DNA of 64,000 bases from contig CAZYCQ010000001.1 in the NCBI GenBank assembly GCA_964645535.1, positions 60,245 to 124,244 of the forward strand, given 5' to 3'. The DNA comes from an uncultured archaeon (GTDB lineage: Archaea > Asgardarchaeota > Heimdallarchaeia > Heimdallarchaeales > Kariarchaeaceae). Positions 1 through 64,000 of the stretch are shown here, in pieces (position 1 is the stretch's first letter; the number at the start of each line of letters is the position of its first letter). Both the position numbers and the translations under genes were made by a program. A model generated the notes under the pieces. The model saw only the letters and a list, made by a program, of their open reading frames with translations, did not search any database and had not been told where the DNA came from.

Positions 1-2
1 AC

Positions 3-905
3 AGAACATACGACAATCTTACCGATACAGAGCCCACAAACTGGACTGAAGTGCAACTGTTCAATATTTCCAACCCATATGAGGTGAACAAAACTGTCAA
101 CAATGTCACAGTTGCAACAACATTGGTCACGGTTTATGGATTTCAAATGAACGAAACACTCAAATTTGACCAAAAATTAGAAGTACAACCGTTCGTGAAA
201 AATAAGAACTTTACTGAATATTTGGATAAGAAAATTTTCGAAATAGTTGATTCAAGACCATCTGGAGAATTGTTCATTGGAAATAACTCATACACAAATG
301 TAACGGATTACACTGTCTTTTTCAAGGCAATCACTGAAAAAGGAGATCTCAAGGAAGTTGCAATTCTTTACGGTACTGATCCTGAAAACCTTACGAAGAC
401 TGTGGTCACCAATAAACCAAAAATAAAACAACGGGCAAATACAACAATAACATTAGATCAGGAAGGAAATTACACATTTATTCTCAATATCACCAACTCT
501 TTGAATCGAACAAGAATTTATACATCATTCCTGATTGTAGATCACACTGCCCCAACAGTTTCAATTTCTCAGAAAGGTCAAGCTTCTCAAGGAATGATTG
601 AAATCACTATCAATGTGGAGGATGAAAATGGCATATTGATAACCTATATCGATTGGGGTGACGGATTGGTTCAAGATGTCACAAATATGACAGAAGAAAG
701 CCATACATACCGGAAATCAGGAGAGTATCAAATAACCCTCGTGTCAATTGATAAAGCAGGCAATATTGCAACCACAAGCATTAATGTGACAATTTCATTA
801 CCCACAACTACCGAAACACCAGTAAACACCAATCCAATTGGACTGGTTTCAATCCTTTCTGCTATAGCCATTGTTCCTTTCATTGGCAAAAAGAGGAAGC
901 CTTGA
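3..905 (+). CDS. Cell-surface glycoprotein-like protein, 5' end truncated by the window edge. It is rich in N-glycosylation sequons and ends in a TM helix followed by a KKRKP basic tail.
   Basis: The reading frame stays open back to position 3, so the GTG at 51 is not the true start. There are many N-x-S/T sequons. The C-terminus ...PIGLVSILSAIAIVPFIGKKRKP is a hydrophobic helix plus basic tail, which resembles an archaeosortase/PGF-CTERM-type signal. Confidence 0.6.
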   Translation, partial: RTYDNLTDTEPTNWTEVQLFNISNPYEVNKTVNNVTVATTLVTVYGFQMNETLKFDQKLEVQPFVKNKNFTEYLDKKIFEIVDSRPSGELFIGNNSYTNVTDYTVFFKAITEKGDLKEVAILYGTDPENLTKTVVTNKPKIKQRANTTITLDQEGNYTFILNITNSLNRTRIYTSFLIVDHTAPTVSISQKGQASQGMIEITINVEDENGILITYIDWGDGLVQDVTNMTEESHTYRKSGEYQITLVSIDKAGNIATTSINVTISLPTTTETPVNTNPIGLVSILSAIAIVPFIGKKRKP

Positions 906-953
906 ACCCTGCTTAAGATAGCCATTTTATATTCGATTGAAACGATTATATAC

Positions 954-3900
954 ATGGATTATAGAATAATTACAGTTTTTGTTATAGCGTTAATCGCCAT
1001 TCCACAGAATGGAGTGGGGAATGTCCCAGTTAATGACAATAATTTAGGAAATTTTCAGGAATATGATTGGGATCATAACAAGATTGAGGATAGTATTGAA
1101 GGTTTTTTTGGTTCAGGTGAATTTCTGGTAAGAACTAATGGTCCTATTGACTGGTATGCCTACGGCTATAAATTGAAATATCAGACAGGTGATAGGTCAA
1201 TCTCATGGATTAAAGGAAAAGGAAACAATCTAAGGATACTTGCACAGAATGAAAACGTTGTTTTCATTGAAGGAGTCAAAAAAATCGAACCACATTTGTT
1301 TTATTCTTCAAAACAGATTGGAGTAAACCCAGGCATTTGGGATCTTGGATACACAGGATCGCAGGAAATGTCGGTTGCAGTGCTTGATACAGGAATTGAT
1401 GCGACACATCCAGCTTTTCAAAACAAACAGATTACATGGGTGGATTTGGCAGGCGTTTCTCTTTCAGTCGATGGAGATGAATATGCAAATCCTGTTGACA
1501 AAGGAGGTCATGGAACCCATGTTGCAGGAATAATTGCCGGTTCCCCAACTTCAAATTTGGAAGAAGGGTTTGTCGGTCAAGTTCCTCCTGTATCCTCTTT
1601 TCAAATCGTGAAGAGTGTATCTGACCATCAAAACAATATCGTACTGAACTTTACAATTGATTGGGGAAATGCAGGAGATGACAATCCGGGGAATCATTTG
1701 ACAGTCATTGCCACACCAAGTAACAATGTGGGAAATGTTGTTGCATTTTTGGATACTGACACAAGTGGGTTGTTCCAAGGTACATTAACTCTAAGTCCTG
1801 GAGAGTACCTTATCGGAGTAGCCAATCAGGAGACAAACGGCCCAAATCCGGAAGGATTGCCATATTCAATAAAGACTACAATAATAAAGGATTCAAACGA
1901 ACCAGAGACGGGGTATAAAAATTGGCGAGGGATTGCACCGGATGTTAACCTTGTAGCGATTAAGGTCTTTGATGATTCCGGGAACGGGAACACAGGATCT
2001 TTACTTCAAGGATTAGATTGGATCAAGAACAATTATGACACCTACAACATAACAGTCGTAAACATGAGTTTGGGAACAGATTCAATTTCATCAGTTATTG
2101 ATTCTGAAGTTGAGAACCTTGCAAATCTCGGAATACTTGTTGTAGCTTCAGCAGGTAATGAAGGAGTGAACGCAAACGGAATTGGATCGCCAGGGTCGGC
2201 TCCTTTTGCATTGACTGTTGGGGCAGTGAATCGAATGAATGAAATCGCATATTATTCCAGCAATGGGGATCCGAATGTAAATACAGTGACAAAACCAGAT
2301 ATCTTGGCACCTGGTGGGTCAGCGGCAATTCCAGGTTTGGGAGATGTTTCAGGATATACCGCAGGAAACGGTTTGATATTATCGGCAATGCCTTTTGGGC
2401 AGACGCCATTCGGGAATGCATTAATTACGGGAAAGCAAGGAACAAGTATGGCAGCACCCCATGTCAGTGGTGTTGCAGCCATTCTCTATCAGATTTTGAA
2501 TGAAAAAGGAGAATTGACGCACAGTATCAATGATGTCAAACGGGTTAAACAAGTTCTTGAATTATCTGCGTTTGAAGTTGGAAATATTCTTAATGGAGGG
2601 GAAAAAATCCAAGGTGGTACACAACAAAATCCACCAATTGATCCAGAAACAAAAGATTTTGTGGAAGGATGGGGGGCAATCAATCCTCTTGCAGCAGTTT
2701 CTCTTGTTTTGGAAACTGCTTCTCCAAATTCGCCCAAGGCAGATGAATTGAGTTTAGAAAATTCTTTCATTCAAAATAGTGTTGCCCGAAAAATTACCCT
2801 CTCAGGAGGAATATCCTATACATTTTGGTCAACCATTCCCCAAGGAGCAAGTGTGGATTTCATACTATATGATGGTAATCCAGATCAATATGGAGATCCT
2901 GTTCCATTGGTGCATAGAAATATAGATGCAAGTTTACAAGAGGGAATTCTGAATCTTCCTGTTTTAATCAACCAATCAGGAGAATACTATTATTCTCTGA
3001 AGCTTCGGGATTCTGTGAACGCTATTGACCGGATACACCATGTTGTCCTTGAAGATAATTTTGTTCCATTCATTAACCCTCTTTCTCCAGTTCCTGATGG
3101 TTATGTCAACCAAACCAATCTAGAAATTCGGTTTGAATCCATGACAAATCAGGTTGATGCTTCGATTGACGGGAACAATATCGGCGTGATATCAGATGGA
3201 TACGTAATTTCTGGGCTTTCACAAGGGGAACATAGTCTCTCTTTAGAAGAAAGAAATGAAAATACAGGTACAAAGGCAAATACAACATTCACCTTCACTG
3301 TTGATCTCACACTTCCTCAATTAGTTTCAAACCTGACATCCATTACCACTGATCAAGCATTATTAATTGAATACAATGCAACGGATAACATGGGAATTGA
3401 CTTTGTAAGGGCAAGAATTGGTAACAGTATTCTTGCACAATCTAATGAGAGTTCAGGAACACTGACAGTAAATCCACAACATTTGCCTCCAGGAACCTAT
3501 GATTTGGTGGTTGAAGTGTTTGATCATGCAGGGAACGTTGCAAGGGAAAGTGCACAAGTCACCTTTGTGCATGATATTTTCATTGAAGGAGAAGATTTGA
3601 TGGAAGTCGAATTCGCCGATGCGATCACCTTGCGTTGGAATGCAGGATCACAGAAACCCTCACAATTCAAAATATTTATTGACGACGTACTTGTTCACGA
3701 GGAAAATTGGAATGGAGGAGACATAGTCTATTCATTTTCTCCAGTTTCATTAGGTGAATACAATATTACTGTAATGGTGATCAATACTGATGGTGATACG
3801 GCAACAGCAACCACAATAGTCCAAGTTCAGGATACCACACCCCCAGTCATACATATTTTAGGAGATATGATTTTAGATGCGACAGAGCCTCAGGAACTTA

Positions 3901-4478
3901 ATCTTTCCATAATTGAACCTTTCCCCCACTCAATTCAGATCCGCTATAAAGAACAGACAATTCTATTTTTAAGGCCATGGAATGGAAGCATGTTTTTCCA
4001 GCCATTAATGATTACTGGAGAACCCAACACATTTGCACAGGTGGATATCGGTGTTGTAGATACTTCTGGCAACATTGCCAATAAGTCAGAACTCATTCAA
4101 TGGAAAGATCTTACACCACCTTCAATCCAAGATTTAGAGGACATCACCATAACTGTGGGTGAAACGAGAGATTTGACATGGACATGGGAAGAAAAATTTG
4201 TTGAAAAAGTAACAATGTACAAAAATGCAGAGATAATTTTTGAGACAACGGAATTTATTTCTTCAATTGAATTTACAGTTGGCGAGGCCAGTCCAGGAAC
4301 AGTGGAATACAAGATAGTAATTGAAGATGCAGGGAACAATACAGCAATCAGTACAGTTAATGTTGCCGTGATCGACATTGTAACCTCAGAAGCCTCAGGT
4401 CAAGCCTTCCTATCATTTGAAATCATCTGGTTTGCAGTCCCCATCATCCTTGCAGGCAGAAAAAGACTTAGGCTTTGA
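954..4478 (+). CDS. Subtilisin-like serine protease (S8 family) with long C-terminal Ig/PKD-like repeats and a C-terminal TM plus basic tail.
   Basis: The catalytic triad motifs are present in order: AVLDTGID (Asp), HGTHVAGIIAG (His) and GTSMAAPHVSGVAAIL (Ser). The C-terminus is ...FLSFEIIWFAVPIILAGRKRLRL. Confidence 0.9.
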   Translation: MDYRIITVFVIALIAIPQNGVGNVPVNDNNLGNFQEYDWDHNKIEDSIEGFFGSGEFLVRTNGPIDWYAYGYKLKYQTGDRSISWIKGKGNNLRILAQNENVVFIEGVKKIEPHLFYSSKQIGVNPGIWDLGYTGSQEMSVAVLDTGIDATHPAFQNKQITWVDLAGVSLSVDGDEYANPVDKGGHGTHVAGIIAGSPTSNLEEGFVGQVPPVSSFQIVKSVSDHQNNIVLNFTIDWGNAGDDNPGNHLTVIATPSNNVGNVVAFLDTDTSGLFQGTLTLSPGEYLIGVANQETNGPNPEGLPYSIKTTIIKDSNEPETGYKNWRGIAPDVNLVAIKVFDDSGNGNTGSLLQGLDWIKNNYDTYNITVVNMSLGTDSISSVIDSEVENLANLGILVVASAGNEGVNANGIGSPGSAPFALTVGAVNRMNEIAYYSSNGDPNVNTVTKPDILAPGGSAAIPGLGDVSGYTAGNGLILSAMPFGQTPFGNALITGKQGTSMAAPHVSGVAAILYQILNEKGELTHSINDVKRVKQVLELSAFEVGNILNGGEKIQGGTQQNPPIDPETKDFVEGWGAINPLAAVSLVLETASPNSPKADELSLENSFIQNSVARKITLSGGISYTFWSTIPQGASVDFILYDGNPDQYGDPVPLVHRNIDASLQEGILNLPVLINQSGEYYYSLKLRDSVNAIDRIHHVVLEDNFVPFINPLSPVPDGYVNQTNLEIRFESMTNQVDASIDGNNIGVISDGYVISGLSQGEHSLSLEERNENTGTKANTTFTFTVDLTLPQLVSNLTSITTDQALLIEYNATDNMGIDFVRARIGNSILAQSNESSGTLTVNPQHLPPGTYDLVVEVFDHAGNVARESAQVTFVHDIFIEGEDLMEVEFADAITLRWNAGSQKPSQFKIFIDDVLVHEENWNGGDIVYSFSPVSLGEYNITVMVINTDGDTATATTIVQVQDTTPPVIHILGDMILDATEPQELNLSIIEPFPHSIQIRYKEQTILFLRPWNGSMFFQPLMITGEPNTFAQVDIGVVDTSGNIANKSELIQWKDLTPPSIQDLEDITITVGETRDLTWTWEEKFVEKVTMYKNAEIIFETTEFISSIEFTVGEASPGTVEYKIVIEDAGNNTAISTVNVAVIDIVTSEASGQAFLSFEIIWFAVPIILAGRKRLRL

Positions 4479-6231
4479 TCCAAACCTCTGTTTTTCCCTC
4501 AAATATTTTGATGATGAACCAACCATCTTCAACCAATGTTTCAAAAAGATCGTCCATTTCAAAATATCGATATCTAGGAAGGACTATGTAATTGTACGTC
4601 CCTTGATTTAACGCAGTTTTTAGCTCAAGCGTATAAGTCGAATTGACCCAATATATGGGAACATCATTATGAAGATAAGTATACGCACCTGTCAGGAACC
4701 ATCTTTCGACAATGATAAGTCCTTCCAAATCATCTTGTTGTCCTACATAGGAGATAGCAGCATTGATATCGGAACCGAATTGGAAAACTGGTGTATAATA
4801 CATGTGAACAAATGATGAGAAAGTGATTGAAAAAATAAAAAGGAAAACTGTTAAATTGTAAATTCCTTGGGGATGAAAATTTGGTATTTTTCCTTTTGGA
4901 ACCTTTTGAAGTTTGGAAAGTACGTTTTCCAAAAATTCCGAAAATAGGAAAATGAACATGCTTATAGCAACAAAGTAAATGACATAAATGTTCATCATGA
5001 ATCTTTCTTCCTTATGGCTTGCAGAATTCCAAAACAACAATCCAGCCCTCCATGGTGTCTCGTACAACAGCCAACCCAAGAAAATGGAGAGCATTAAACG
5101 GACAAATTCCTTGGTAAGGTGGTGAGATGGAAAAAATTGGTCAAATATTTTCCTTCTTCTGAAATACACATTACCCATGAAAAACAGAAAGGATAGGAGA
5201 AGAACAGAAATTAAGCCCAATCCATTTTCTATGACAAGTCTATAGGCATACCAACCAAACGGAGCAACGCCAAAGGAATCGGAATTTCCTTCAAGAACGT
5301 TGAATTTAAACCATTGAACTGGAACAATGCCAAAATCCTGTATTCCTTCATACATGAAAGCATCAATCGACATTCCCACAATCCATCCTCCAAGGGAAGG
5401 GGTCAAAACAACACTAAGATCTTCCAGAAATTGTTCCTTTTTCCCCTCCATAAAGTCAAAAACTTGGTGCACGACTGCCATGGAAAACAAAATAATTAGG
5501 AAATCAATCCTGACGTAGGTTGCAATTCCAAATCCAATGAAATAAACCAATTTTTCCTTTATAGTTTCATCTTCCGATGCGGCGGAAAGTCGTCTTTCAT
5601 AAAAAGTCGCAATTGCATATATGAATATGGGGAGAAAAAAGACATTGAAAAGCGGCCGAGTCGTAATGTAAGCAATTTTCCACCAGATAGCCACAAGGAA
5701 CCCACTTGTATAACCGATTTTTTTGTCTTGACTGATGACATCTCCCAGTCTTTTGGTGGCCGGAATTAGCATGAATGAAATGCAAGCCATTGTCAGCCGA
5801 ATGAGGGGCAATGTGACACTCCAATATGGCAAATGCGAAACCTTGGCAATCCAAAATATTGCCGCAAAGAATAGAGGAATAATCCATGATCTTGCTTTTG
5901 CATAGGATGGCGTATCAGGATTTGAAAGTTGAAATTCAGGAGGAACAAAACCATAACCATAAACAATATAATGACCCATTTCTAGTGATTGAAAAATTTC
6001 ATCAGGATGATATATCCCCGTTCCAGTTAAAGCATAAAAAATCCTCAAAATCAATCCTAAAACTACACCAATGTAGTATAATTTTCTGAATACACTGACA
6101 TCGATTTCATTGATGAAATTTAGGTAGTGCTTTGATCGGTTAGCCATCAAAAAACCTGACGTAATCATCAATTTATAGCTTTTTTCATTACCCAAGATAT
6201 CCCATATGAAAATGGGAAAATTTGGTTTCAT
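4468..6231 (-). CDS. Polytopic membrane glycosyltransferase, possibly GT22 (ALG9/ALG12/PIG-B-like mannosyltransferase).
   Basis: More than 10 predicted TM helices. The N-terminal motif YHPDEIFQSLEMGHYIVYGYGF resembles the HPDE.FQ signature of Glyco_transf_22 as recalled from memory, not from a search. Confidence 0.45.
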   Translation of the reverse strand: MKPNFPIFIWDILGNEKSYKLMITSGFLMANRSKHYLNFINEIDVSVFRKLYYIGVVLGLILRIFYALTGTGIYHPDEIFQSLEMGHYIVYGYGFVPPEFQLSNPDTPSYAKARSWIIPLFFAAIFWIAKVSHLPYWSVTLPLIRLTMACISFMLIPATKRLGDVISQDKKIGYTSGFLVAIWWKIAYITTRPLFNVFFLPIFIYAIATFYERRLSAASEDETIKEKLVYFIGFGIATYVRIDFLIILFSMAVVHQVFDFMEGKKEQFLEDLSVVLTPSLGGWIVGMSIDAFMYEGIQDFGIVPVQWFKFNVLEGNSDSFGVAPFGWYAYRLVIENGLGLISVLLLSFLFFMGNVYFRRRKIFDQFFPSHHLTKEFVRLMLSIFLGWLLYETPWRAGLLFWNSASHKEERFMMNIYVIYFVAISMFIFLFSEFLENVLSKLQKVPKGKIPNFHPQGIYNLTVFLFIFSITFSSFVHMYYTPVFQFGSDINAAISYVGQQDDLEGLIIVERWFLTGAYTYLHNDVPIYWVNSTYTLELKTALNQGTYNYIVLPRYRYFEMDDLFETLVEDGWFIIKIFEGKTEVWIKA

Positions 6232-8256: not shown

Positions 8257-8937
8257 TCAATTATCCCTTGTAGGAATGCTGAAGAACAACCAAGAACCAA
8301 AAAATACCAAGATCACAAATGAAACGGTTGAAGTTATTGGATTGAAAATTCTTGGAAAGAAGGTACCTAAATAAACTACTAGATTGACTATTGCAAGGAT
8401 ACCTGCAACAATGGTAATCCATCTAATACGATCCTCAAAATAATCCTGAAGCAAACTTATTAGAGAAGGATCTATCTCTCTTTCTTCCTCAAGAACCATA
8501 TCGATCCGACTGAAGTAAAATTTCTTGATTGTCAGTTCAGTCAGTTCATGGATGATTAGAAACGATAAAGTCAAACTTATGGGCAACAAAATCACATGTT
8601 CAAATACAATATGCATAATGAGACCATCAACAATTGAAAAAGAAAGCAATCTACCCATGAAAGGATCTTGGAAAAGATTTTTGCTCTTTAAAGCGACAAT
8701 CAGTCCAAGAGGAAACAAGACCCAAGTGGAAAATCCAAATATCTTTTCGAAAATTGGAATACTGTCAGGCAATAGGATGATGGCAATGAGGAAATTTAGC
8801 ATATTTCCGAAAATCTGGAAATAGGAAGAAAGAACAGCCAAGATTTTTGCCCAGCGGTTTAATTTCATGATAAAACCTTTTTGTTCGAAAATGTTGTCAA
8901 TCGTTCGAGAAGTTTGAAAAGCACTTAATGAGCTCAT
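8257..8937 (-). CDS. Integral membrane protein at the distal end of the MoxR cluster.
   Basis: Multiple hydrophobic helices. It is co-directional with and overlaps the DUF58 gene. Confidence 0.5.
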   Translation of the reverse strand: MSSLSAFQTSRTIDNIFEQKGFIMKLNRWAKILAVLSSYFQIFGNMLNFLIAIILLPDSIPIFEKIFGFSTWVLFPLGLIVALKSKNLFQDPFMGRLLSFSIVDGLIMHIVFEHVILLPISLTLSFLIIHELTELTIKKFYFSRIDMVLEEEREIDPSLISLLQDYFEDRIRWITIVAGILAIVNLVVYLGTFFPRIFNPITSTVSFVILVFFGSWLFFSIPTRDN

Positions 8938-10211
8938 TGTTTCACCTCCGAAATTGCTCGAACACGATCAACATTGTAGGCCAACGAACGATCTAGACCC
9001 AAATGCGGATCCCAATTGTACACTCGAACTCCCTTTTTCTTAACCTGATTTTCAGTCAGTTCCCTCTTCATTTTGACAAGGGTCTTGGCAGTTCGTTCTT
9101 CCACAGAATCATGTTCTGATATGGTAAGTTCATTGTAGTTTGGAGAAAATACAGTAAGTCTACCCATCAGTGAAAGTTTATCAATTAAAATATGGTTAAG
9201 AGCCTGATCACGCAGAGGGGAGAACAAGAGAACTTCGTTCTGTGAGCCTGCCTTTTCTAAAACCGCGTGTAACCGTTGCTTGAACAAGTTCAATTCGGTA
9301 ATTTTCATAGGCTTGGCAAGAGCCAAATAATGGCTAATTTGCAACAATTTTTTCCTGTTCGAAGTCGGCGGGAAATAAGCTGCGACATTCGAAACGACCA
9401 GAAGACCAGTTCGGCATTGGTTATTTATGAAGAAATCCAAAAGACCCATTACAGTTTTACTTGTCTCTTCAATCAATGTCTCATTGGCTTGAACCATATC
9501 GACAACGATCAAGATTTTTGTGGACTGTTCAATTTGAAATTCATTGGAATGAAGTTTCCAATATTTGGAGGTCACTTTCCAATTGATCCGTTTCAAGGTA
9601 TCAGTAGGGACATATTCCCTAATACCTGCGAAATCCCAACCCTCTCCAACTAGTTTGGTTTGGAAAGGCCCCCCATAAGACCTGAGAAATTGAGCTGTGA
9701 ATGGCGTTTTTGAAATTTTTGCAGGAACTGGCAAGACGATGATATCAAATGTGGTTTCCACTTCATAGACACTCGTTCTCAATTCCGAAAAATCATGGGA
9801 GAAAACCCGGACAGGACCAATCTTAAAAGAGCCTAGTTTGGGTATTGAAATTCCGTACCGAATTTCAAATGTGCTGTTCGGCTCTAATTTAATGAGAAAG
9901 TTGTTTGTGCCTTCAATCAACCTGGCATATCGAGGGATGATGTCATAAATATTTCCTCTGAATGGTTTAGAACCTTTATTTCGAATTGTTAGGGTAATGG
10001 GAATTAAGTTTTCATTATGAAAATATTTTTGGGGGATATGTCTTGTGATTTCAAGTTCAGGTAACTCATGGGATAGAAGGAACTTCAGGAAGACAATTGA
10101 GCCAATAGATAGCAAACCCATTAACCAAACAGGATTTCCAGTGATCACGCTTAGAATAATGAAGAGTGTTGCAAAACCCCTTGCAGGGATGATTTTTTGG
10201 CCGAGTCCCAT
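8934..10211 (-). CDS. DUF58-family protein (vWA-like, MoxR-associated).
   Basis: The motif GEGWDFAGIREYVPTDTLKRINWKVTSK matches the DUF58 signature G.G.df...ReY..GD..r.IdWk. The start is probably the internal Met at about 10211, which avoids overlap with moxR. Confidence 0.75.
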   Translation of the reverse strand: MGLGQKIIPARGFATLFIILSVITGNPVWLMGLLSIGSIVFLKFLLSHELPELEITRHIPQKYFHNENLIPITLTIRNKGSKPFRGNIYDIIPRYARLIEGTNNFLIKLEPNSTFEIRYGISIPKLGSFKIGPVRVFSHDFSELRTSVYEVETTFDIIVLPVPAKISKTPFTAQFLRSYGGPFQTKLVGEGWDFAGIREYVPTDTLKRINWKVTSKYWKLHSNEFQIEQSTKILIVVDMVQANETLIEETSKTVMGLLDFFINNQCRTGLLVVSNVAAYFPPTSNRKKLLQISHYLALAKPMKITELNLFKQRLHAVLEKAGSQNEVLLFSPLRDQALNHILIDKLSLMGRLTVFSPNYNELTISEHDSVEERTAKTLVKMKRELTENQVKKKGVRVYNWDPHLGLDRSLAYNVDRVRAISEVKQ

Positions 10212-10221
10212 AAAAATCCAC

Positions 10222-11181
10222 TCAAACAACTCGTGGAGCTGGAATACGATGGAAGATTTCCGTAAGGATCGTTCCAGCATTAACACCACTAATTATATCA
10301 CCTGATCTCAATATAATTCGGTGTCCCAACACAGGAATAAGGACATCTTGGATGTCTTGGGGATTGACAAAGTCACGACCGTTAAGCAATGCCCAAGCCT
10401 TTGAGGCTTGGATTAAACCCAAGCTTCCTCTAGGGCTGGCACCTACAGCAATTTGTCCATGATTTCGTGTCTTTTCAACAATGGTGACTGCATATTCGAT
10501 TATCGGATCACTGACATGAACTTCTTCCACCAATCTCTGTAATGCCAATACATCTTCTTTAGTAGCTACGGTATCAATATCAACTTCTTCTTTTTTCCTA
10601 TCCACTCGGTTTCTCACGATTTGCATTTCATCCTTCTTCGATGGATAACCAACACTTAATTTCATGAGAAACCTATCAAGTTGAGCTTCGGGAAGTGTGA
10701 AGGTTCCCTCATATTCCAAGGGGTTTTGGGTTGCCAAAACGATGAAGGGTGGATCCAATGAATAGGTGTTGCCATCTACAGTCACTGTTCTTTCCTGCAT
10801 GGATTCCAAAAGAGCAGATTGTGTTTTGGGGGTTGCACGGTTGATTTCATCCGCCAACAGTAGATTTGTAAAAACAGGACCTTGCCTGAATTCGAATTGG
10901 TTGGAAGACATGTTGAACATGGATATCCCTGAAATATCAGCAGGGAGAAGATCCGGAGTAAATTGGATTCTAGAGAAATCCAACCCAGTCGCTTGACCAA
11001 AGGTCCTGATCATGAGAGTTTTCCCCAAACCAGGTAGATCTTCAAATAGAATATGGCCGTTAGATAAAATCCCAGCCATAACGTATTTCAAAACCTCATC
11101 TTTTCCGATGATGGCTTTTTTGACCTCATTCAGTATTTGATTTATTTTTGTTGATGCTTGTTCAAAATTCATGATCATCAC
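10222..11181 (-). CDS. MoxR-family AAA+ ATPase.
   Basis: Walker A is GLGKT, Walker B is LLADEINRA, followed by the sensor region ATQNP. The 319-aa size is typical. Confidence 0.9.
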   Translation of the reverse strand: MMIMNFEQASTKINQILNEVKKAIIGKDEVLKYVMAGILSNGHILFEDLPGLGKTLMIRTFGQATGLDFSRIQFTPDLLPADISGISMFNMSSNQFEFRQGPVFTNLLLADEINRATPKTQSALLESMQERTVTVDGNTYSLDPPFIVLATQNPLEYEGTFTLPEAQLDRFLMKLSVGYPSKKDEMQIVRNRVDRKKEEVDIDTVATKEDVLALQRLVEEVHVSDPIIEYAVTIVEKTRNHGQIAVGASPRGSLGLIQASKAWALLNGRDFVNPQDIQDVLIPVLGHRIILRSGDIISGVNAGTILTEIFHRIPAPRVV

Positions 11182-11689
11182 CTATATTTGGATAAATATG
11201 CTTAAGTTTCTCTATTAATTTATAAAGCTCGACCTTTACTTTTTCCTCATCTACCTTACGGAAAAGGAAGGAGCTTGAGGATCCTACTGAGTTCATCCAA
11301 AGAGCGGGATTGAAAAAGAATAGACGAATATCTTTGTCAGGAATTATCTTTTTCATCTCTTCAGAAGAGCTTCGTATGGCAATAAATTCACTGTCAGACA
11401 TTCCCAGCATAGCAGCAAGGATTGAGGATAGTTCCCGTCTAATGAGAAATACGTAACCTTTGATCTCAGATGACCGCAACATATCAACCAATAGACCCAA
11501 TTCTTCCAACGGTCGCCCTCGTGGACTGGCATCTGTATTCAAAACTTGGTCATAAGGAAGCCATTCATCGGTCTCTTGGTTTTGAAGGTAACTCAAAATG
11601 AAAAATATCGAAAGGGCAATGGAAAATAGCCATAACCAACCTTGGTTGAATATCAAATCCAGAAAGGCAAGTAAATCCTCAGTTGCCAC
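11162..11689 (-). CDS. Hypothetical protein in the MoxR operon, possibly DUF4129-like.
   Basis: It sits between a membrane protein and moxR on the same strand. An N-terminal hydrophobic segment is present. Confidence 0.4.
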   Translation of the reverse strand: MATEDLLAFLDLIFNQGWLWLFSIALSIFFILSYLQNQETDEWLPYDQVLNTDASPRGRPLEELGLLVDMLRSSEIKGYVFLIRRELSSILAAMLGMSDSEFIAIRSSSEEMKKIIPDKDIRLFFFNPALWMNSVGSSSSFLFRKVDEEKVKVELYKLIEKLKHIYPNIGDDHEF

Positions 11690-12581
11690 TCAAAGGCACC
11701 TCCTTTTTCAGCAAAGACAAAACTTGATCAGCAGCTTCTCGTGCTTCTTCAACATGGCTTTCAGTTAATTCATGGGAAGAGAACCGAGCAAGTTCATACA
11801 GTTCAGTTAATATTGAGAAATAGTCAGACCCAGGAGAACCAAGCTCATCAACTAACTCCCATAAGAACCTTGAAGGAGTATACCATGTTGGAACTCTTCC
11901 AATTTTTCCCTCAATCCGGTAACAGGTTGATCGGTAGATCTCAATTATGTCTTTTTGGAGTTTACTGACTTTTGATTGGTATGGGTCTTCCTCAATGAGT
12001 TCAAGATCCGCCTTGTTCTTGACAATAACTGCAAAAAAGAGCAGGTATATGAAAAATATGGCCACAATTATAGTCACGAGAATATTGAACCACTCGGTTG
12101 CATTGACCAACCAACGAGGAGGAGCTTCAGTCACCGTAACCGTTCTGGTATAGGTGAAAAAAGACCCATCTGTCACGTTAGTAAATGTTTCTGTGACAAC
12201 AGAAATGTTGTCATCACTTACGGTTCGACTTGTGGGGAAACGGTTTTGGCTTTCGTCGAAAAGGAGAGAGGGACGATAGCTAGCCAAAAAAGCCAACACT
12301 ATGCCTGTGAGGACAATCGGCAAAAAGATTGCATCAAACCGATCAATTTTGAGACCCATTGATCTTAATGCGAAAATCAGGAAAAGGTACATTGCAATAC
12401 CGAAGGGAAGCAGGATCTCAACCGTTGGATTGCTCACCAACAGCTCGATCTTACCTTTGATAAGCAATTCCGAAAGGAGGATATAGAACCCTAAAAGGGA
12501 AGCCCCTCCTTTTGCAAGCATTCCACGGTTAAGATCGAGATCTGAAAAACTCATCTGACAATTGCTCATTCGTTTGGACAA
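11679..12581 (-). CDS. Membrane protein, first gene of the MoxR cluster.
   Basis: Several TM helices. Genes overlap tail-to-head with the next gene in the cluster. Confidence 0.45.
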   Translation of the reverse strand: MSKRMSNCQMSFSDLDLNRGMLAKGGASLLGFYILLSELLIKGKIELLVSNPTVEILLPFGIAMYLFLIFALRSMGLKIDRFDAIFLPIVLTGIVLAFLASYRPSLLFDESQNRFPTSRTVSDDNISVVTETFTNVTDGSFFTYTRTVTVTEAPPRWLVNATEWFNILVTIIVAIFFIYLLFFAVIVKNKADLELIEEDPYQSKVSKLQKDIIEIYRSTCYRIEGKIGRVPTWYTPSRFLWELVDELGSPGSDYFSILTELYELARFSSHELTESHVEEAREAADQVLSLLKKEVPLSGN

Positions 12582-47633: not shown

Positions 47634-47965
47634 TGACTGTGAAAATTGATAAACGGAGATACCTCTTGGTGAGATTTCTAGGTAAAAAGCCAAAGAGAGA
47701 AGAGTTTGACAAGGAAATAAGAAAAATTGTACGGTATTTCTACGGTGAACTTACACTGATTTGGAGCAACTTACACATTGTGGATGAATGGAATGACTTC
47801 TTCATCATTCGAACCAATCACAGGTATGTTGATCAAATAGAAGCCGCAATAACCATTATGTGGTCTGAAGATTTTATTGCAGATATAATTTGTAAATCGG
47901 GAACTATAAAAGGACTCAAACGTAGATTCAAAAATTTATTTGAGACGGCGTCCGTGAGCTCGTAG
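47633..47965 (+). CDS. rnp2: RNase P protein component 2 (Pop5/Rnp2).
   Basis: N-terminal KRRYLLVRF (R.RYL motif). 110 aa. The start overlaps the rpp30 stop (TAATGA). Confidence 0.7.
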   Translation: MTVKIDKRRYLLVRFLGKKPKREEFDKEIRKIVRYFYGELTLIWSNLHIVDEWNDFFIIRTNHRYVDQIEAAITIMWSEDFIADIICKSGTIKGLKRRFKNLFETASVSS

Positions 47966-48523
47966 ACTTGGTCTTGCTTTTTCAACACCACGACCTTTGC
48001 GGAACAGACCCCTTGATTTCTTCCCGGCAGCAGTAAGGCCTCGGTAAGTACGACCCTTGTGAACCTTCCGGTTGATCCAAGCAATTCTTTTGTCATTGAC
48101 AATTGCAGGATGAACTGGATCCACCATGATAATTTCGAACCATTTGGATCGACCATCTTGGCCTACCCAATAGGAGCCCAAAACTTCAAGATTAGGATAT
48201 TTTCTTTGAGTTCTTGTTTCTGCGATCCATCTAAGGTTCCTTCCACTTGTTTTGTCAATTGCAAGGTTTACACCTCTGCTTCTCCCTCTATTTGGACGGG
48301 ACATCCGTCGGGAACCCCTTCTCACCTTCGTCCTTACCACAACATACCCCGGTTTAGCCTTATAACCCAAGGCACGAGCACGATCAATTCTTAATGGACG
48401 TTCAACGCGTACAATCGTGTTTTGTCGTCTCCATTCAATCAGGCGTGGTTTTTGGATTGCCTTGAATTCTGGTGTATTTCTTTTTCTCCAAAACATTCTG
48501 ACATTTTTGTACAGATTAGTCAT
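47936..48523 (-). CDS. rpl15e: 50S ribosomal protein L15e.
   Basis: WRRQNTIVRVERPLRIDRARALGYKAKPGYVVVRTKVRRG is the characteristic L15e core. Confidence 0.9.
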   Translation of the reverse strand: MTNLYKNVRMFWRKRNTPEFKAIQKPRLIEWRRQNTIVRVERPLRIDRARALGYKAKPGYVVVRTKVRRGSRRMSRPNRGRSRGVNLAIDKTSGRNLRWIAETRTQRKYPNLEVLGSYWVGQDGRSKWFEIIMVDPVHPAIVNDKRIAWINRKVHKGRTYRGLTAAGKKSRGLFRKGRGVEKARPSLRAHGRRLK

Positions 48524-48611
48524 TGTTATCACTTCCCTGTGTCACATTACGATCATTCACAGCAAATTTTCTCTAATTCATGAGAATTAAAAACTAGCGT
48601 TAGATTTCAGG

Positions 48612-50345: not shown

Positions 50346-50346
50346 T

Positions 50347-51846
50347 TCATTCCACCTCTATTCCAGAGCTGACTTCTACATTCCGAAGCCAATTCAAGTC
50401 TTGCGAAAGTAATTCCCTGATGTCATTGATTTGGTTTTTGACCATGAACAACCTGTCAATTCCTAAACCCCACGCAATAACAGGATAATCGACCCCATAA
50501 GGTCTAACTACTTCCGGACGGAAAATTCCAGCTCCACCGAACTCGATTCTTCCCAATACAGGATGTTTTGCGCTCAATTCAACCGAAGGGGAGGTGAAGG
50601 GATAATAATCCGGACGGAAATTCACTTCTGTGGCACCCGCGATGTCCTCTGCAAAAACCTTCAGAATGCCGAGCAGATCCCGGAAGGTGATTGTAGGATC
50701 GCAAACAATACCCTCCACCTGATAGAATTCCACGCCATGTGTTGCGTCTATGTCATCTGGACGGAAACATTTGGCAATTGAAAAGTATTTTTCCGGAGGA
50801 TTGACTTTTCTTAAGGTTCGTGCAGAAATTGCGGTTCCTTGAGGTCGCAAAAGTAAACGTGCAGCCTTTTTTGGATCCCATCTGTATTTGTAACCTCTCG
50901 AACCGGTAATCCAACCATCTTCATGTGTTTGTTTTACATTGTCCACAAATGCCTCATTAGGAAGGTTACCATGTGTAGGGGAATCGATTAGGAAGATATC
51001 CGAATCTTCACGGGCCGGATGGTCTTGAGGGGCAAAAAGAGAATCAAAATTCCAGAATTCCTGTTCAATGAGTGGCCCTTTCATCTCCTTGAAACCCAAG
51101 GCAATCAGTTTTTCCCTTAGGTGATCGTGGAAATGACGGTATGGATGGTATTTTCCTGGAAAAAGGGTTCGGGGTTTGCTTTTGATATTATAGGGTTTGA
51201 ATTTTACCTTTTTCCATTTTCCGCTAATAATCATTTGAGGTGTGATCTGACTTACTTCCTCCTCCACTATTATCTCATATCTGTCAACAGGGACTGCGTT
51301 GACCTCCACAATATTGCGGATCTGTCTTTCCACAAGACCTCGTGAATGAAGGGTTTGAGCAATGGCTGGATCAACCTCTTTACCCTCTGCCACAAGTGAA
51401 AGTCCTGTCTGTAAATCATTTGAGACATCATCCACGAATGTTCCATCAGTTAGGGAAACCGTACCTTTTTCGATTTTAATCAGACCTGACTTTTTCAAAA
51501 CGCCAATCCCTGCAGATAGATCGGGTTTGGAAAGTCCCAATGTTTTCCCAGCATCGGACATATGGAATGAACCAACCTTGGCTAAATGATTTGCAATTCT
51601 TCTTTCCACGAGACCCTGTTCCAAAGCCTCTCTCCCCCTGTCTGTCAGGGACAATGTTTCTTTTTCAATGACTTGCTTTTCTACGAGACCTTCTTTTGCG
51701 AGAAGCTCGACAAGAGAACTGACTTTACCCAATTCAAACCCAGTCTTCTCCGATAGCTGGTTCAGATTTGAGGTTCTTAGATTGAGAACCTCATCAAGTA
51801 CTCGGGCTGCGTCAGGGGTTAATTTTACGCGCTGTTTTGACATCAT
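50347..51846 (-). CDS. pheS: Phenylalanine-tRNA ligase alpha subunit (archaeal/eukaryotic type).
   Basis: Class II aaRS motifs: FRPDYYPFTSPSVE and GLGIDRLFMV. Confidence 0.85.
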   Translation of the reverse strand: MMSKQRVKLTPDAARVLDEVLNLRTSNLNQLSEKTGFELGKVSSLVELLAKEGLVEKQVIEKETLSLTDRGREALEQGLVERRIANHLAKVGSFHMSDAGKTLGLSKPDLSAGIGVLKKSGLIKIEKGTVSLTDGTFVDDVSNDLQTGLSLVAEGKEVDPAIAQTLHSRGLVERQIRNIVEVNAVPVDRYEIIVEEEVSQITPQMIISGKWKKVKFKPYNIKSKPRTLFPGKYHPYRHFHDHLREKLIALGFKEMKGPLIEQEFWNFDSLFAPQDHPAREDSDIFLIDSPTHGNLPNEAFVDNVKQTHEDGWITGSRGYKYRWDPKKAARLLLRPQGTAISARTLRKVNPPEKYFSIAKCFRPDDIDATHGVEFYQVEGIVCDPTITFRDLLGILKVFAEDIAGATEVNFRPDYYPFTSPSVELSAKHPVLGRIEFGGAGIFRPEVVRPYGVDYPVIAWGLGIDRLFMVKNQINDIRELLSQDLNWLRNVEVSSGIEVE

Positions 51847-51968: not shown

Positions 51969-52568
51969 TTACTTAAACTTTTGTGCTTTTTCTCTCTTTG
52001 TTTGCTGATTATGTTTTTCGATGAAATATTCGATCATGTGGTTAAAGGCTTTTTCAATATTTTCTCCTGTTTTAGCGGAGGTGTAATAAAATTTTATTGG
52101 ATTCCCTGTCCGCAGGGAAAGTGCTTCAACTTTTTTCTCGATTTCTTCCTCTGAGACTGCCGCTTGTTTCTCACCATTTTGGATAAGATCCACCTTGTTC
52201 CCCAAAACGATGATGGGAACTTTCATTTCATGGCTATAACTGATTTCATTGAGGAATTCTTCAAGAAAACCATCAAGATCATCAAAGGATTTGCGGTCAG
52301 TAATATCAAAAACAATGAAAGCTCCATCTGATGCGCTGTAATATAATTTTCGTACATGATGAAAGGTTTCTTGACCGGCTATGTCCCATATCTGGAGAAT
52401 AAATTCACCCAAAGGATGGTCGATACGTTTAACCGCAAAGTCAGCGCCAATAGTTAGGGAGTAATTATGTTGAAATTGTTCACCGAAGTAATTTCTTCTG
52501 ATACTGGTCTTGCCAACCCGTTTCCTTCCTATGAGAATTACCTTGAATTGTTTTGGAATGTTCAACAC
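51969..52568 (-). CDS. Rab-like small GTPase (Ras superfamily).
   Basis: G1 GRKRVGKTS; switch I TIGADF (RabF1 IGVDF); G3 ILQIWDIAGQE (RabF2 KLQIWDTAGQE); YYSASDGAFIVFDITDRKSF (Rab YYRGA.G...V.D.T...SF); G4 GNKVDL; G5 YTSAKTGENI. No C-terminal Cys prenylation motif. Confidence 0.8.
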   Translation of the reverse strand: MLNIPKQFKVILIGRKRVGKTSIRRNYFGEQFQHNYSLTIGADFAVKRIDHPLGEFILQIWDIAGQETFHHVRKLYYSASDGAFIVFDITDRKSFDDLDGFLEEFLNEISYSHEMKVPIIVLGNKVDLIQNGEKQAAVSEEEIEKKVEALSLRTGNPIKFYYTSAKTGENIEKAFNHMIEYFIEKHNQQTKREKAQKFK

Positions 52569-57717: not shown

Positions 57718-59664
57718 ATGAGCAACCTTGAAACTAAATGGCAGGATTTCTTTCCGTATGATCCAAGACCTGCACAACTGAAGATTTTGAATCCATTGGA
57801 AAAGCTGATTGCAGAAGGAAAACATTGTATCATTGAGGCAGCAAATGGAACAGGGAAGACCATTGCCGCACTTTCAGCAGCCCTTCCTGCAGCCAAACGG
57901 CATGACAAGGTTATCGTCTATTTGGCAAGAACTCATTCCCAGATGGACAGGGTCATTGAAGAATTGGGTAAGATCAACGAAATCAAATCAGTAAAGGTTT
58001 CTGGATTGACAATGCGAGGAAGAAATTCCATGTGCCTAAATGACCTAGTCCTCAAATTTGCAACCAATCCTAGGTCTGCAGGAGAAATGTGCACGCAATT
58101 GAAGTCGCTAAAAAAATGCCAGTATTTCAAGAACATGGCTGATGAAACAACAATGGCACCTGTCTTCAATGAACTCCAGAGAAAGCCTGCAACCGCGGAA
58201 ATCATATTTGAATTGGCGGAAGCAGCAGCAATCTGCCCTGCTGAAACCGCAAGAAAATTGCTCTCAAGTGTTGATGTAATAGCTGGCAGTTACCTATACA
58301 TGTTTGATCCAAGAATCAATACAATGTTCCTTGACCAGACAGGTGTTGAACTTGATGATCTCATCCTTGTAGTGGATGAATGCCATAATCTTCCAGATAC
58401 AGCCATTGATATAGGATCTGATGAACTCACCACTTTTTCTTTCAGCCGTGCAATAAGAGAGGCAAGGGATGAAGGGCAAACAAACATTATCCCCTTCTTT
58501 GATGCATGCCAAGAGTTTTTTGCAGAACTATCAGTACGCAATAAGATTGGACAAGAGGTGCCAATTGATGCATCTGAGATTCTTGAAAAGTTGGAACTCA
58601 TGTGTGACCTTGAATTGGATGATGAATTTTTTGATGATTTGATCACCCTTGGAATCAAAATTCGAACCAAATTACTTCGAAAAGGCAAGGAACCAAGATC
58701 GAGTATTGGAAGAATTGGAGAGTTTTTTTATTTATGGTATGAGTCTATTGGAAGGAATGAATTTACCCATTCAGTGGAAGTAAAAACCATTGAGGGAAAT
58801 CAAAGAAATCGTTATGCCATTTTGCGACTTTCAAGTCTCGATCCGAGGAGAGTTTTGATGCCGATTCTATCGGAAGTATATGCTTCAGTCCATCTGACAG
58901 GCACCTTGGGGGATCCAGAAGCCTATGCAAAACTGACAGGTCTTGAAAACCTTCCCCACGAAAAAATTATTCTTCCGTCCCCTTATGAAAGAAAGAATAT
59001 TGCGGCATATTTTACAGGAAAATTAAGTACCCTCTATAGCCATAGAAGCCCTGAAACCTACAGAAAAATTGCAGATCTGGTCATGGTTGTAGCGGATGAG
59101 ACACCGAAAAACATTGGAGTATTTGCACCAAGTTACCAAATAGTTGAAGAGCTTTTCAGGAACGGATTGGATCAATATCGAACTAAACCGATTTTCAGAG
59201 TCCCTTCTGAAGCAACATCTGAAGAAAATGACAGAATTGTAAAAAGGTTCAAGAAAGAAGCATCCAAAGAAGGAGGGATCTTGATTTCCGTATTGGGAGG
59301 CAGATCATCCGAAGGAACTGATTTTCCGGGTCACTTGATGAATTCCGTAGTTGTCATAGGAATACCCTATGCCCCTCCAAATCCTCGGATCCAAGCAAAA
59401 ATCAATTTTCTCGAAGAGAATTTCCCAGGTCTTGGAAGAACTTTGGGATATGAAATCCCTGCAGTCAACAAAGCAAGTCAGGCAGCAGGTAGAGCCGTCC
59501 GATCATTGGATGACAGAGCATTCATTTTATTCGTTGACTTCAGGTATGGATCCTACAAGGTCAAGAAACTATTGCCAAATTGGTTGCGGACAGGTTTGAA
59601 GAAGATTGATCCTAAACCAGAAAATATTGAGCGAGCAATCAGAAATTTTTTTGAAGAAAAATAA
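57718..59664 (+). CDS. xpd: XPD/Rad3-family 5'-3' DNA helicase (Fe-S helicase).
   Basis: Walker A ANGTGKT; DECH box VVDECHNL; four Cys of the Fe-S domain (NSMCLND, GEMCTQL, LKKCQYF, AAICPAE). Confidence 0.85.
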   Translation: MSNLETKWQDFFPYDPRPAQLKILNPLEKLIAEGKHCIIEAANGTGKTIAALSAALPAAKRHDKVIVYLARTHSQMDRVIEELGKINEIKSVKVSGLTMRGRNSMCLNDLVLKFATNPRSAGEMCTQLKSLKKCQYFKNMADETTMAPVFNELQRKPATAEIIFELAEAAAICPAETARKLLSSVDVIAGSYLYMFDPRINTMFLDQTGVELDDLILVVDECHNLPDTAIDIGSDELTTFSFSRAIREARDEGQTNIIPFFDACQEFFAELSVRNKIGQEVPIDASEILEKLELMCDLELDDEFFDDLITLGIKIRTKLLRKGKEPRSSIGRIGEFFYLWYESIGRNEFTHSVEVKTIEGNQRNRYAILRLSSLDPRRVLMPILSEVYASVHLTGTLGDPEAYAKLTGLENLPHEKIILPSPYERKNIAAYFTGKLSTLYSHRSPETYRKIADLVMVVADETPKNIGVFAPSYQIVEELFRNGLDQYRTKPIFRVPSEATSEENDRIVKRFKKEASKEGGILISVLGGRSSEGTDFPGHLMNSVVVIGIPYAPPNPRIQAKINFLEENFPGLGRTLGYEIPAVNKASQAAGRAVRSLDDRAFILFVDFRYGSYKVKKLLPNWLRTGLKKIDPKPENIERAIRNFFEEK

Positions 59665-61804: not shown

Positions 61805-62044
61805 TCGCTTTCAAAATTTAATATCTTTGCAATTTAATAAAAAGATTGGAACAGAGTTGCCCATCTTCAGAATGGATAGTTGATCTGAAGGGAGGAAAGA
61901 GGTAAATGCAGAATTAATGGCAAATGCCTTTTACGTAGGAATTTCAGGAAAAACAGCCATTTTTCACACAAATCGGTAAAAAACAAATCCATTTTCTCAC
62001 TACAGAGACAAAGGTATTTATTTATCTGAGTTACATCCACTTTA

Positions 62045-64000
62045 ATGATCGCCAGATCACTAACACGGAGTAGTGCAAAACAAAGATTGGCGGTAGTCAT
62101 TTTCCTTTTTGGGATCCTTGTTTTTTCAGGGTTCCTGCCGGCAACCGCGCATACAGAAAGGAACAACAGATCATTTTCTGAAACAGTATCTTCTGTTGAT
62201 CCTAATAACAGGCAAACAGTGGAACAGACCACATATTCAGCCAATTCAGGAAGAAATCTACCATTCCTTGAACAAGATCGAAGGTACGATCTTCTTCGGA
62301 AAGAACTCAAGAATAAAGGATTGGAACTCAATTCAAAGGTAGTTTCTCCTTTTCTTTTGAATTTGCAAGGCAAAGATTTCCAAGCCAATCCTGATGGAAC
62401 CTTGGATCTCATAATTTCAACAACAGGAGAAAAACCGATGACCGATATGCATTCTTTGGCGAATATGTTTGGCTTTGAAATGCTGAGAACAATTCCCCAG
62501 TTGGATGCATACGTCTTTCGAGGAAGAATTGCAGATTTCAATGCATTTCTGCTCAAAAACAGTAGATCTCTTGATGTAAAGTATGTTGCTCCTCGAACCA
62601 CTTACCAAATCGAAGGGTTCCAATCCAGCAATTCAATTCAATTGGATGGAACACCGAATGATCCTAGATGGAATGATCAATACGGACCACAAATCATTCG
62701 AGCCGATAAGGCATGGAGCCAGATCAGTAGTCCCCCTACAGACCCAGTCATCATAGGTGTAATCGATACGGGAATTGATTACAATCATCCGGATTTAGAT
62801 GGAGTCTATCTTCCCGGAGGATATGATTGGGTCAACGATGATACCGACCCTATGGATGACAATAACCACGGAACACATGTTGCTGGAATCATTGCGGCAG
62901 AAATCAACAATAGTCTTGGTATTGCTGGAGTTGCCGGATTTGGTTCAAGTTACGTCAAGGTAATGGCTGAAAAGGTGTTCACTTCATATGGTGGAGGAAG
63001 TGATGACGTAATCGCACAAGGCATTGTGCATGCAGTTGACTTTGGTATTGACATTATGAGCAATTCGTGGGGAGGTGGCCCTTCTGATTTAATTGAAGAA
63101 GCCATGGAATATGCTAGAGACAATGGAGTGATTATTATTGCCGCCGCAGGAAACGGTTTTGGACCCGATGCAGACCTGCATTATCCTGCATCTCTTCCAT
63201 ATGTCATTTCCGTATCCTCTACGGATAGAAATGATCAATTGTCTTTCTTCAGTTCCTATGGCTATACTGTAGATGTAGCAGCACCAGGTTCAGATATCCT
63301 CTCATCCATAATAGGAGGAGATTATGCTGAATTCTCAGGCACAAGCATGGCGACACCTCATGTATCTGCCACTGCTGCATTGATGCTTCTGAAACAACCA
63401 GACCTTTCTCCCTTTGAAGTGCGGACTTTATTGCACGACACAAGTGTTGATCTTGGAACACAGGGATTTGACATTAAGTTCGGATATGGAAGGATTGATG
63501 CATTCAATGCTACAGTCGCAGCAGAAAGGCCAGATATTGATTTGAGAGCAACAATTTATGTACCCCAGCATCCAATAGTCACCAATTCCATCATTGACAT
63601 TACAATTGGTCTGTTCAATTTTGGAACTACAAACCAAGATCTGGACTATACAATCAAGAGAGATGGAAAGGTGATAGACAGCGGCACCTATACGAATTTC
63701 TCTGCCGCAAGTGAAATCATGCTTCAAGAACAATTGTTTGTTGTAGACCCAAAGGATGTAACCCTTGAGGTATTTATTACGCCAGTGACTGGTGAAACAA
63801 ATCTTGAGAACAACAACGCCACCCAAGTCTTGAAATTTGGACAACAGACCTATCAAATGATAGCTGAAGAATTCAGTTGGGATGATGCAAGAAATGGTGG
63901 GTATGATGCAGGGTTGCAAGGGGATGATACGGCAGTTGAAGTACCCTTACCGTTTTCCTTCGAATTCTATGAAGGATTTAACTTCGAGACGGTATTTGTC
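62045..64000 (+). CDS. Subtilisin/thermitase-like S8 protease with an N-terminal signal and propeptide, 3' end truncated by the window edge. It is not in the supplied ORF track.
   Basis: Translated manually from ATG 62045 with no stop to 64000. The signal is MIARSLTRSSAKQRLAVVIFLFGILVFSGF. Triad motifs GVIDTGID, HGTHVAGIIAA and GTSMATPHVSATAAL are all in the same frame, with frame checked at 62756, 62867 and 63338. Confidence 0.85.
   Translation, partial: MIARSLTRSSAKQRLAVVIFLFGILVFSGFLPATAHTERNNRSFSETVSSVDPNNRQTVEQTTYSANSGRNLPFLEQDRRYDLLRKELKNKGLELNSKVVSPFLLNLQGKDFQANPDGTLDLIISTTGEKPMTDMHSLANMFGFEMLRTIPQLDAYVFRGRIADFNAFLLKNSRSLDVKYVAPRTTYQIEGFQSSNSIQLDGTPNDPRWNDQYGPQIIRADKAWSQISSPPTDPVIIGVIDTGIDYNHPDLDGVYLPGGYDWVNDDTDPMDDNNHGTHVAGIIAAEINNSLGIAGVAGFGSSYVKVMAEKVFTSYGGGSDDVIAQGIVHAVDFGIDIMSNSWGGGPSDLIEEAMEYARDNGVIIIAAAGNGFGPDADLHYPASLPYVISVSSTDRNDQLSFFSSYGYTVDVAAPGSDILSSIIGGDYAEFSGTSMATPHVSATAALMLLKQPDLSPFEVRTLLHDTSVDLGTQGFDIKFGYGRIDAFNATVAAERPDIDLRATIYVPQHPIVTNSIIDITIGLFNFGTTNQDLDYTIKRDGKVIDSGTYTNFSAASEIMLQEQLFVVDPKDVTLEVFITPVTGETNLENNNATQVLKFGQQTYQMIAEEFSWDDARNGGYDAGLQGDDTAVEVPLPFSFEFYEGFNFETVFV

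Follow-up and report, generated by a model that had tools for sequence, protein, structure and literature searches.

Prototypic SNARE proteins of Heimdallarchaeota have been described by Neveu, Khalifeh, Salamin & Fasshauer (bioRxiv 10.1101/810531; Curr Biol 2020), who reported one SNARE per Heimdall genome and listed four such proteins: HPS1 (PWI47941.1), HPS2 (OLS22354.1, from LC_2), OLS23218.1 (from LC_3) and, as the fourth, RMG36020.1. Complexes of HPS1 and HPS2 with neuronal SNAREs were obtained in vitro, and RMG36020.1, which is 48% identical to HPS2 of LC_2, was inferred to belong probably to the Heimdallarchaeota clade (bioRxiv 10.1101/810531). Here, we analysed a stretch of 64,000 nucleotides of the archaeal contig CAZYCQ010000001.1 (hereafter, the window). 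It carries a gene for a tail-anchored Q-SNARE-like protein of 242 amino acids (aa) (22312-23040, minus strand), recognized by its motif, layers, transmembrane (TM) segment and match in the Protein Data Bank (PDB), as well as a gene for a Rab-like small GTPase. With an estimated probability of about 0.92, the window consists of ordinary chromosomal DNA from an Asgard archaeon of the Heimdall group, whose lineage is sister to the named Kariarchaeaceae, and includes this published Q-SNARE-like gene and the Rab-like GTPase gene. Furthermore, the SNARE gene and a gene for an orphan protein of 349 aa show a conserved linkage.

The SNARE candidate is identical, residue for residue, to RMG36020.1 (D6732_08755, hypothetical protein), which is located on contig RFHV01000376.1 of GCA_003696825.1 and bears the label 'Euryarchaeota / Methanobacteriota archaeon' in GenBank. 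Both the SNARE protein and its Heimdall affinity are already known, since they were published for the same protein. In our comparison, the candidate and HeimC2_29900 of Heimdall LC_2 shared 48% identity. For some window proteins, exact matches were confined to a 163-kb NCBI contig and to Logan contigs of run SRR7905022, which derives from Jinata hot-spring source-pool sediment. The RFHV versions of these proteins differ slightly, and the window unites genes that are split between two RFHV contigs (46.7 and 30.4 kb). Therefore, the window comes from a better assembly of a near-identical genome.

The SNARE-like features of this protein could, in principle, belong to a generic coiled-coil, tail-anchored protein that owes its likeness to convergent heptad periodicity and not to homology. 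We consider this improbable, in view of the regularity of the motif. In the register of syntaxin-1A, the candidate has exactly 16 layers: M162, L165, I169, I172, L176, M179 and L183 precede layer 0 at Q186, and I190, I193, V197, L200, L204, A207, I211 and V214 follow it. All 15 layers flanking layer 0 (-7 to +8) are hydrophobic in the window protein and in all 27 aligned family members, whereas only 24% of the non-layer positions in this alignment are hydrophobic. Layer 0 is invariably polar, with Q in 24 of the 27 members and H in the other three. The most hydrophobic 19-mer (residues 223-241) is the sole strongly hydrophobic segment of the protein; it lies at the extreme C-terminus and starts 37 residues past Q186, a SNARE-like spacing. 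The only significant PDB sequence match is again a SNARE motif, that of syntaxin-6 (2nps_D; E 1.5e-4 with the single sequence and 1.9e-4 with the family profile), in which Q186 is aligned with the Q of 'EEQ'. Moreover, of 23 aligned sequences (family members and profile hits), nine gave a match of their own to PF05739 or V-SNARE_C at E <= 0.01, with 2.1e-11 as the best value. That its relatives HPS1 and HPS2 enter into complexes with neuronal SNAREs in vitro also argues against mere convergence (bioRxiv 10.1101/810531).

Several results nevertheless weigh against the SNARE assignment. The candidate itself remained below the Pfam threshold for SNAREs (PF05739, E 0.7, 10.4 bits versus a cut-off of 26.8), as it did for V-SNARE_C (E 0.068), and its better, still weak, Pfam scores went to unrelated coiled-coil families. 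A profile search of 1.84 billion representative proteins returned only 31 matches; three of the 23 aligned family and profile sequences looked like eukaryotic SNAREs by eye, at E ~3e-4 to 8e-4. The AlphaFold2 model (predicted local distance difference test, pLDDT, 72; predicted template modelling score, pTM, 0.60) gave no specific syntaxin fold match in Foldseek. Its best matches were designed four-helix bundles (E >= 0.03), and syntaxin-1 in complex with Munc18 appeared at rank 50 with E 5.7. In this model, helices at residues 10-71, 80-134 and 139-184 precede a break at the 0 layer, after which the motif and then the TM segment follow. The initial annotation had called the protein a syntaxin-like SNARE. 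The 16-layer motif, the central Q, the TM segment and the syntaxin-6 match bear out the SNARE part of this description, while an Habc N-terminal domain was not demonstrated.

If the SNARE assignment is accepted, HPS1 and HPS2 offer an analogy for how the protein might work. It would be inserted into a membrane via its C-terminal anchor with the helical part in the cytosol, and the 16-layer motif would zipper with partner helices into parallel coiled-coil bundles. By the same analogy, the protein may have a role in membrane fusion or tethering. There was no second SNARE paralogue within the window, no SM protein, NSF/alpha-SNAP or tether gene adjoined the SNARE gene, and Pfam scans of the window open reading frames (ORFs) revealed no roadblock, longin, ESCRT or TRAPP gene. 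A divergent SNARE-like member (P0200), 24% identical to the window protein, was found in another locus (L018, 1060-2434; also in L019 and L020). It is preceded by a gene for a membrane protein of 283 aa, whose C-terminal part bears a CxxC..CxxC motif, and directly followed by a gene for 196 aa that weakly matched Roadblock/LC7 and MAPKK1_Int. This locus is a different SNARE neighbourhood, from another lineage.

An Asgard (Heimdall-like) origin had been proposed from gene content, and our comparison of markers and gene order upholds it. We obtained 5301 homologues of the phenylalanyl-tRNA synthetase subunit PheS at E <= 1e-20, and examined the best 120 for their names. Among these 120, every named homologue was from Asgard archaea, with identities of 54-57% for Heimdallarchaeota/Kariarchaeaceae and 46-51% for Heimdallarchaeaceae, Hodarchaeales and Thorarchaeota. 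PheT showed the same ranking (Kari-like 54% and 53%, Heimdallarchaeaceae 46%, Thor 45%). A neighbour-joining tree of PheS (492 columns, 200 bootstrap replicates, rooted on Thorarchaeota-named sequences) placed the window in a clade with all Kariarchaeaceae-named sequences at 100% bootstrap support. Within it, the window grouped with unnamed sequences (98% support) in a sub-clade that is sister to the named Kariarchaeaceae, and the Kari-containing clade was in turn sister to a Heimdallarchaeaceae clade, again with 100% support. NCBI taxonomy places the Kariarchaeaceae within Promethearchaeati, the Asgard kingdom. Hence, our sequence comparisons support a Heimdall-group (Kariarchaeaceae-related) Asgard archaeon as the source of the window, and in the PheS tree the named Kariarchaeaceae (the 'LC_2' group) form the sister group of its lineage. 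Because PheS is only 54-57% identical to that of the named members and belongs to a 98% sub-clade of unnamed sequences, this is probably a separate genus or family-level lineage.

The SNARE gene and its surroundings showed the same affinity. A scan with the SNARE alignment, with one genome per GTDB species, recovered nine loci, seven titled Heimdallarchaeota or Kariarchaeota and two without a lineage name. In total, 13 loci of relatives held the SNARE gene, and every lineage-named one was labelled Heimdallarchaeota or Kariarchaeota. The closest locus (L003, from Heimdallarchaeota S012_26_esom) encodes a SNARE that is 89% identical and shares eleven genes with the window in nearly colinear order, Lrp-Trx-TFB-CBS-NUDIX-SNARE-unk349-GFO-LRR-PhoU-PHO4, where unk349 denotes the orphan protein. 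These eleven genes were 28-92% identical to those of the window, ten of them 60-92%. Genes from the left (GT22, Dak2), the middle (DUF885, LplA, receiver-like) and the right (MFS, hydrolase, GTPase) of the window recur near the SNARE gene in other Heimdall-group metagenome-assembled genomes (MAGs), which argues against a chimeric contig. The ribosomal protein L15e was closer to archaeal than to eukaryotic ribosome chains in the PDB (219 versus 158 bits), and therefore does not indicate eukaryotic contamination. The marker placement that had been proposed as a check thus gave the Kariarchaeaceae clade for PheS; no placement in Thermoplasmatota or DPANN and no eukaryotic contamination emerged.

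The names that GenBank attaches to the identical proteins ('Euryarchaeota archaeon / Methanobacteriota archaeon') point elsewhere, to a Euryarchaeote (Methanobacteriota). Under this explanation, such an organism, or else a member of Thermoplasmatota or DPANN, would have acquired a few Asgard-like genes by transfer. Two aspects of our methods leave some room for this explanation: the placement tree comprises one protein, analysed by neighbour joining, with Asgard sequences throughout, and the rejection of Euryarchaeota rests on the ranking of matches and on submitter-given names. We consider it very improbable all the same. PheS and PheT are core translation markers and place the contig with Kariarchaeaceae and other Heimdall-group sequences. 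A run of eleven consecutive genes, TFB among them, has nearly the same order in a Heimdallarchaeota MAG, and further MAGs of the Heimdall group have, near their SNARE gene, homologues of genes from every part of the window. The Heimdall conclusion was also reached by Neveu et al. (bioRxiv 10.1101/810531). The GenBank taxonomy of the MAG GCA_003696825.1 is wrong, as the submitter label is contradicted by all evidence presented here. Its correction is the practical gain of the placement, which otherwise adds little.

The orphan gene (21201-22250, minus strand) is located downstream of the SNARE gene in the same orientation, at a distance of 61 nt. Among the 13 loci of relatives, 12 have the two genes no more than 5 kb apart (L003-L008, L010, L011, L015, L021, L023 and L024), and in the thirteenth the flank extends over only 326 nt on one side. 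In contrast, the next most conserved neighbour, CBS, was found in five of the 13 loci. The two genes occur in tandem, SNARE first, in the window, L003 and L004; in tandem, orphan first, in L024; and divergently in L005, L007, L008, L010, L011 (on the same contig as L022), L015, L021 and L023, while in L006 a GGR gene separates them. In the window, the two genes are inverted together with respect to its 89%-identical relative. These observations show a conserved linkage of the SNARE and orphan genes. As far as the searchable literature shows, the gene pair is undescribed.

Across 5.8 billion sequences the orphan family comprises 40 clusters, and all named clusters are from the Heimdall group. 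The AlphaFold2 model of the orphan is confident (pLDDT 88, pTM 0.82) and has a beta-rich core with long helices from both termini around it. The predicted fold had no significant match in the PDB or in BFVD, a viral structure library, and searches with the single sequence and with a profile gave nothing consistent in PDB sequences, Pfam or NCBIfam. An identity as SM protein, alpha-SNAP, NSF, longin or roadblock protein was rejected, as no such structure appeared among the Foldseek matches listed. Weak matches to COMMD rings (ranks 5 and 28, TMq ~0.09) were dropped after comparison with a COMMD paper of 2026. As side observations, in L008, L015 and L023 no more than 5 kb separate the SNARE-orphan pair from PheS-PheT, compared with ~26 kb in the window, and in L010 the pair is adjoined by Dak2 and by a homologue of the GT22 mannosyltransferase of the window (4468-6231).

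The linkage may have a functional basis. The SNARE and the orphan would then form a conserved two-gene module of the Kariarchaeaceae-related Heimdall lineage, in which the orphan could be a cytosolic, dedicated partner of the SNARE, for instance a chaperone, regulator or assembly factor. We put this forward as a tentative suggestion that is less likely true than not; a physical partnership of the two proteins is something we infer only. The main alternative is that their adjacency is residual synteny among related genomes and has no functional meaning, and the odds that this applies are slightly better than even. It fits the distant members of the orphan family (37-40% identical, including that of Ca. 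Heimdallarchaeum aukensis), as the Heimdallarchaeaceae-like clade has the orphan but no SNARE gene within the available flank of 1.5 to 6 kb per side (L013, L025-L029, L031). The orphan gene is also found 2-3.8 kb from TFB in L013, where Trx is near as well, and in the window, L003 and L004, which may reflect an old neighbourhood, and in L006 the GGR gene stands between the two. Residual synteny accounts less readily for a pair that is retained so much more often than CBS, that persists through three arrangements (both tandem orders and the divergent one) and that was inverted as a unit, with both families confined to one archaeal group. Asgard SNARE-like proteins are without known partners, and the orphan is an obvious first protein to try for binding, co-expression and co-localisation.

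Other neighbours of the SNARE gene are less conserved. On its other side, two plus-strand genes encode multi-pass membrane proteins of 765 aa (23110-25407) and 318 aa (25404-26360) with no Pfam or NCBIfam match. Homologues were not detected within 5 kb of the SNARE gene in any of the 13 loci of relatives, and both genes were missing from four of the relatives' SNARE loci in which the flanking genes of the window are conserved. From this pattern, they appear to be a lineage-specific insertion beside the SNARE gene. In both proteins, 'TN/TE-[KHDE]R-hydrophobic' motifs recur behind TM pairs and recall bacterial PH (YdbT-like) domains by eye, and the 318-aa protein has a winged-helix-like C-terminal tail. 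The initial annotation had regarded the uncharacterised neighbours collectively as candidates for trafficking components. Among them, the orphan, with its conserved linkage, is the sole well-supported candidate; the two membrane proteins were rejected as candidates, as they have no homologue near the SNARE gene in relatives and look like multi-pass membrane proteins. The window thereby also shows which SNARE neighbours lack conservation and can be put aside.

The Rab-like GTPase (199 aa, 51969-52568, minus strand) matched the Ras family with E 2.5e-40. All of the 60 PDB matches listed were Rab-type (Rab, Ypt or Rab-related names), for example Rab7 (3e-27) and 'Thorarchaeota Rab' 7ezb (2.6e-26). 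The G1-G5 motifs are all present (GRKRVGKT, TIGADF, WDIAGQE, GNKVD and TSAK). The C-terminal cysteine for geranylgeranylation is absent, and the sequence ends in a basic tail (...REKAQKFK). No roadblock or longin gene adjoins the GTPase gene within the window. The GTPase gene is located directly downstream of PheS, an adjacency that was not seen in L008, L015, L016 and L017, and a GTPase 39% identical to that of the window is encoded ~0.8 kb from the SNARE gene in L009.

The window has an even GC content (38-43% over its whole length) and tightly packed ORFs on both strands. We compared ~60 non-overlapping ORFs with Pfam and some of them also with NCBIfam; a scan for sigma-70 promoters was disregarded, as it is not meaningful for archaea. 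The Pfam and NCBIfam scans confirmed the previously reported gene content, with the exception of the LRR call and of the SNARE, which was recognized by the features described above. The archaeal information-processing genes all gave clear Pfam or NCBIfam matches. They include the archaeal marker TiaS, tRNA-Ile2 agmatidine synthetase (12672-14000, plus strand; three TiaS domains, E 1e-10 to 4e-29), a stand-alone Bud32, the KEOPS kinase (16860-17516, minus strand; NCBIfam arch_bud32, 208.7 bits versus a cut-off of 125), and transcription factor B, TFB (18624-19667, plus strand; Pfam), which is 92% identical to that of L003 and 53% to that of Ca. Heimdallarchaeum aukensis. An RNA-binding protein of family PF01877 and the RNase P subunits Rpp30 (46986-47633) and Pop5 (47633-47965) form a plus-strand cluster (46519-47965; Pfam), which adjoins L15e in L015 as well. 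It is followed on the minus strand by L15e (47936-48532; Pfam E 6e-70) and by PheT (48612-50345) and PheS (50347-51846), the beta and alpha subunits of an archaeal/eukaryotic-type PheRS, both assigned by Pfam. A look-up of L15e for identical sequences gave no match, probably owing to a different call of its GTG start. An XPD/Rad3-family helicase (57718-59664, plus strand) has DEAD_2, HBB and Helicase_C_2 domains, and an aconitase (41532-44237, minus strand) was identified by Pfam.

Like the GTPase, the HEAT-repeat protein (1107 aa, 36753-40076, minus strand) clearly matched its family in Pfam, with several HEAT/ARM-type matches (HEAT_2 E 1e-9), although no single stretch passes alone. It was not assigned to adaptins or coatomer, because a PDB sequence search gave no match. 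The LRR call concerned a protein of 394 aa (27550-28734, plus strand), for which no LRR profile reached its threshold. It is weakly LRR-like by sub-threshold Pfam matches (LRR_EndoS, E 0.004, 17.8 bits versus a cut-off of 27.9; LRR_4, E 0.1) and contains a short, irregular stretch of LxxLxL repeats at about residues 125-225. Next to it is the one tRNA gene of the window, an intron-less tRNA-Arg(TCG) (28740-28810, plus strand).

Further genes lie towards the ends of the window. A full-length mannosyltransferase (4468-6231, minus strand; E 6e-33) belongs to the GT22 (ALG9/ALG12/PIG-B-like) family, which is best known from the eukaryotic ER. A minus-strand cluster of a MoxR AAA+ ATPase, DUF58, DUF4129 and two ORFs of no known family (8257-12581) is what we take to be the usual MoxR-associated operon type. 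Beside TFB, a thioredoxin (18154-18555, plus strand) matched the OST3/OST6 family with 36.4 bits (Pfam cut-off 27), over its thioredoxin-like part only; the Trx-TFB adjacency is preserved in Ca. Heimdallarchaeum aukensis (L013). Large S8 subtilases, presumably secreted proteases, are encoded on the plus strand at both ends of the window (954-4478 and 62030-64000). The first has weak Ig-like matches and is preceded by an ORF with a PKD domain (3-905, plus strand), and the second is overlapped on the opposite strand by a 244-aa ORF (61867-62601) that is probably spurious.

How does the locus compare with described systems? The Kariarchaeaceae/LC_2 lineage provides the best named matches for PheS, PheT, the SNARE and the orphan protein, although the window PheS differs from that of the named members in its identity of only 54-57%. 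The window GTPase resembles the Asgard Rab-like GTPases, such as the Thorarchaeota Rab 7ezb, in its G1-G5 motifs and Rab-type PDB matches, and differs from them in having no C-terminal prenylation cysteine. With HPS1, HPS2, OLS23218.1 and RMG36020.1, the SNARE candidate shares a layout in which a helical N-terminal region is followed by a Q-SNARE motif, then by a short linker and finally by a TM anchor. The protein itself is no different from the published prototypic SNAREs; its genomic context is unmentioned by Neveu et al., so the 349-aa neighbour is undescribed there. Eukaryotic Q-SNAREs, of which syntaxin-6 (Qc) is closest in the PDB, have in common with the candidate the 16-layer heptad motif with Q at layer 0, the tail anchor ~37 residues past this Q and a predicted helical N-terminal region. 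The similarity is marginal (one PDB SNARE at E 1.5e-4, Pfam sub-threshold), and the protein cannot be assigned to any of the Qa, Qb, Qc and R classes. Eukaryotes hold many SNAREs, about 20 or more, whereas the window holds one such gene. Finally, the orphan would fill a role similar to that of eukaryotic SM proteins and alpha-SNAP, yet it is unrelated to them; if this role is real, prokaryotic SNARE systems would thereby gain their first candidate accessory factor.

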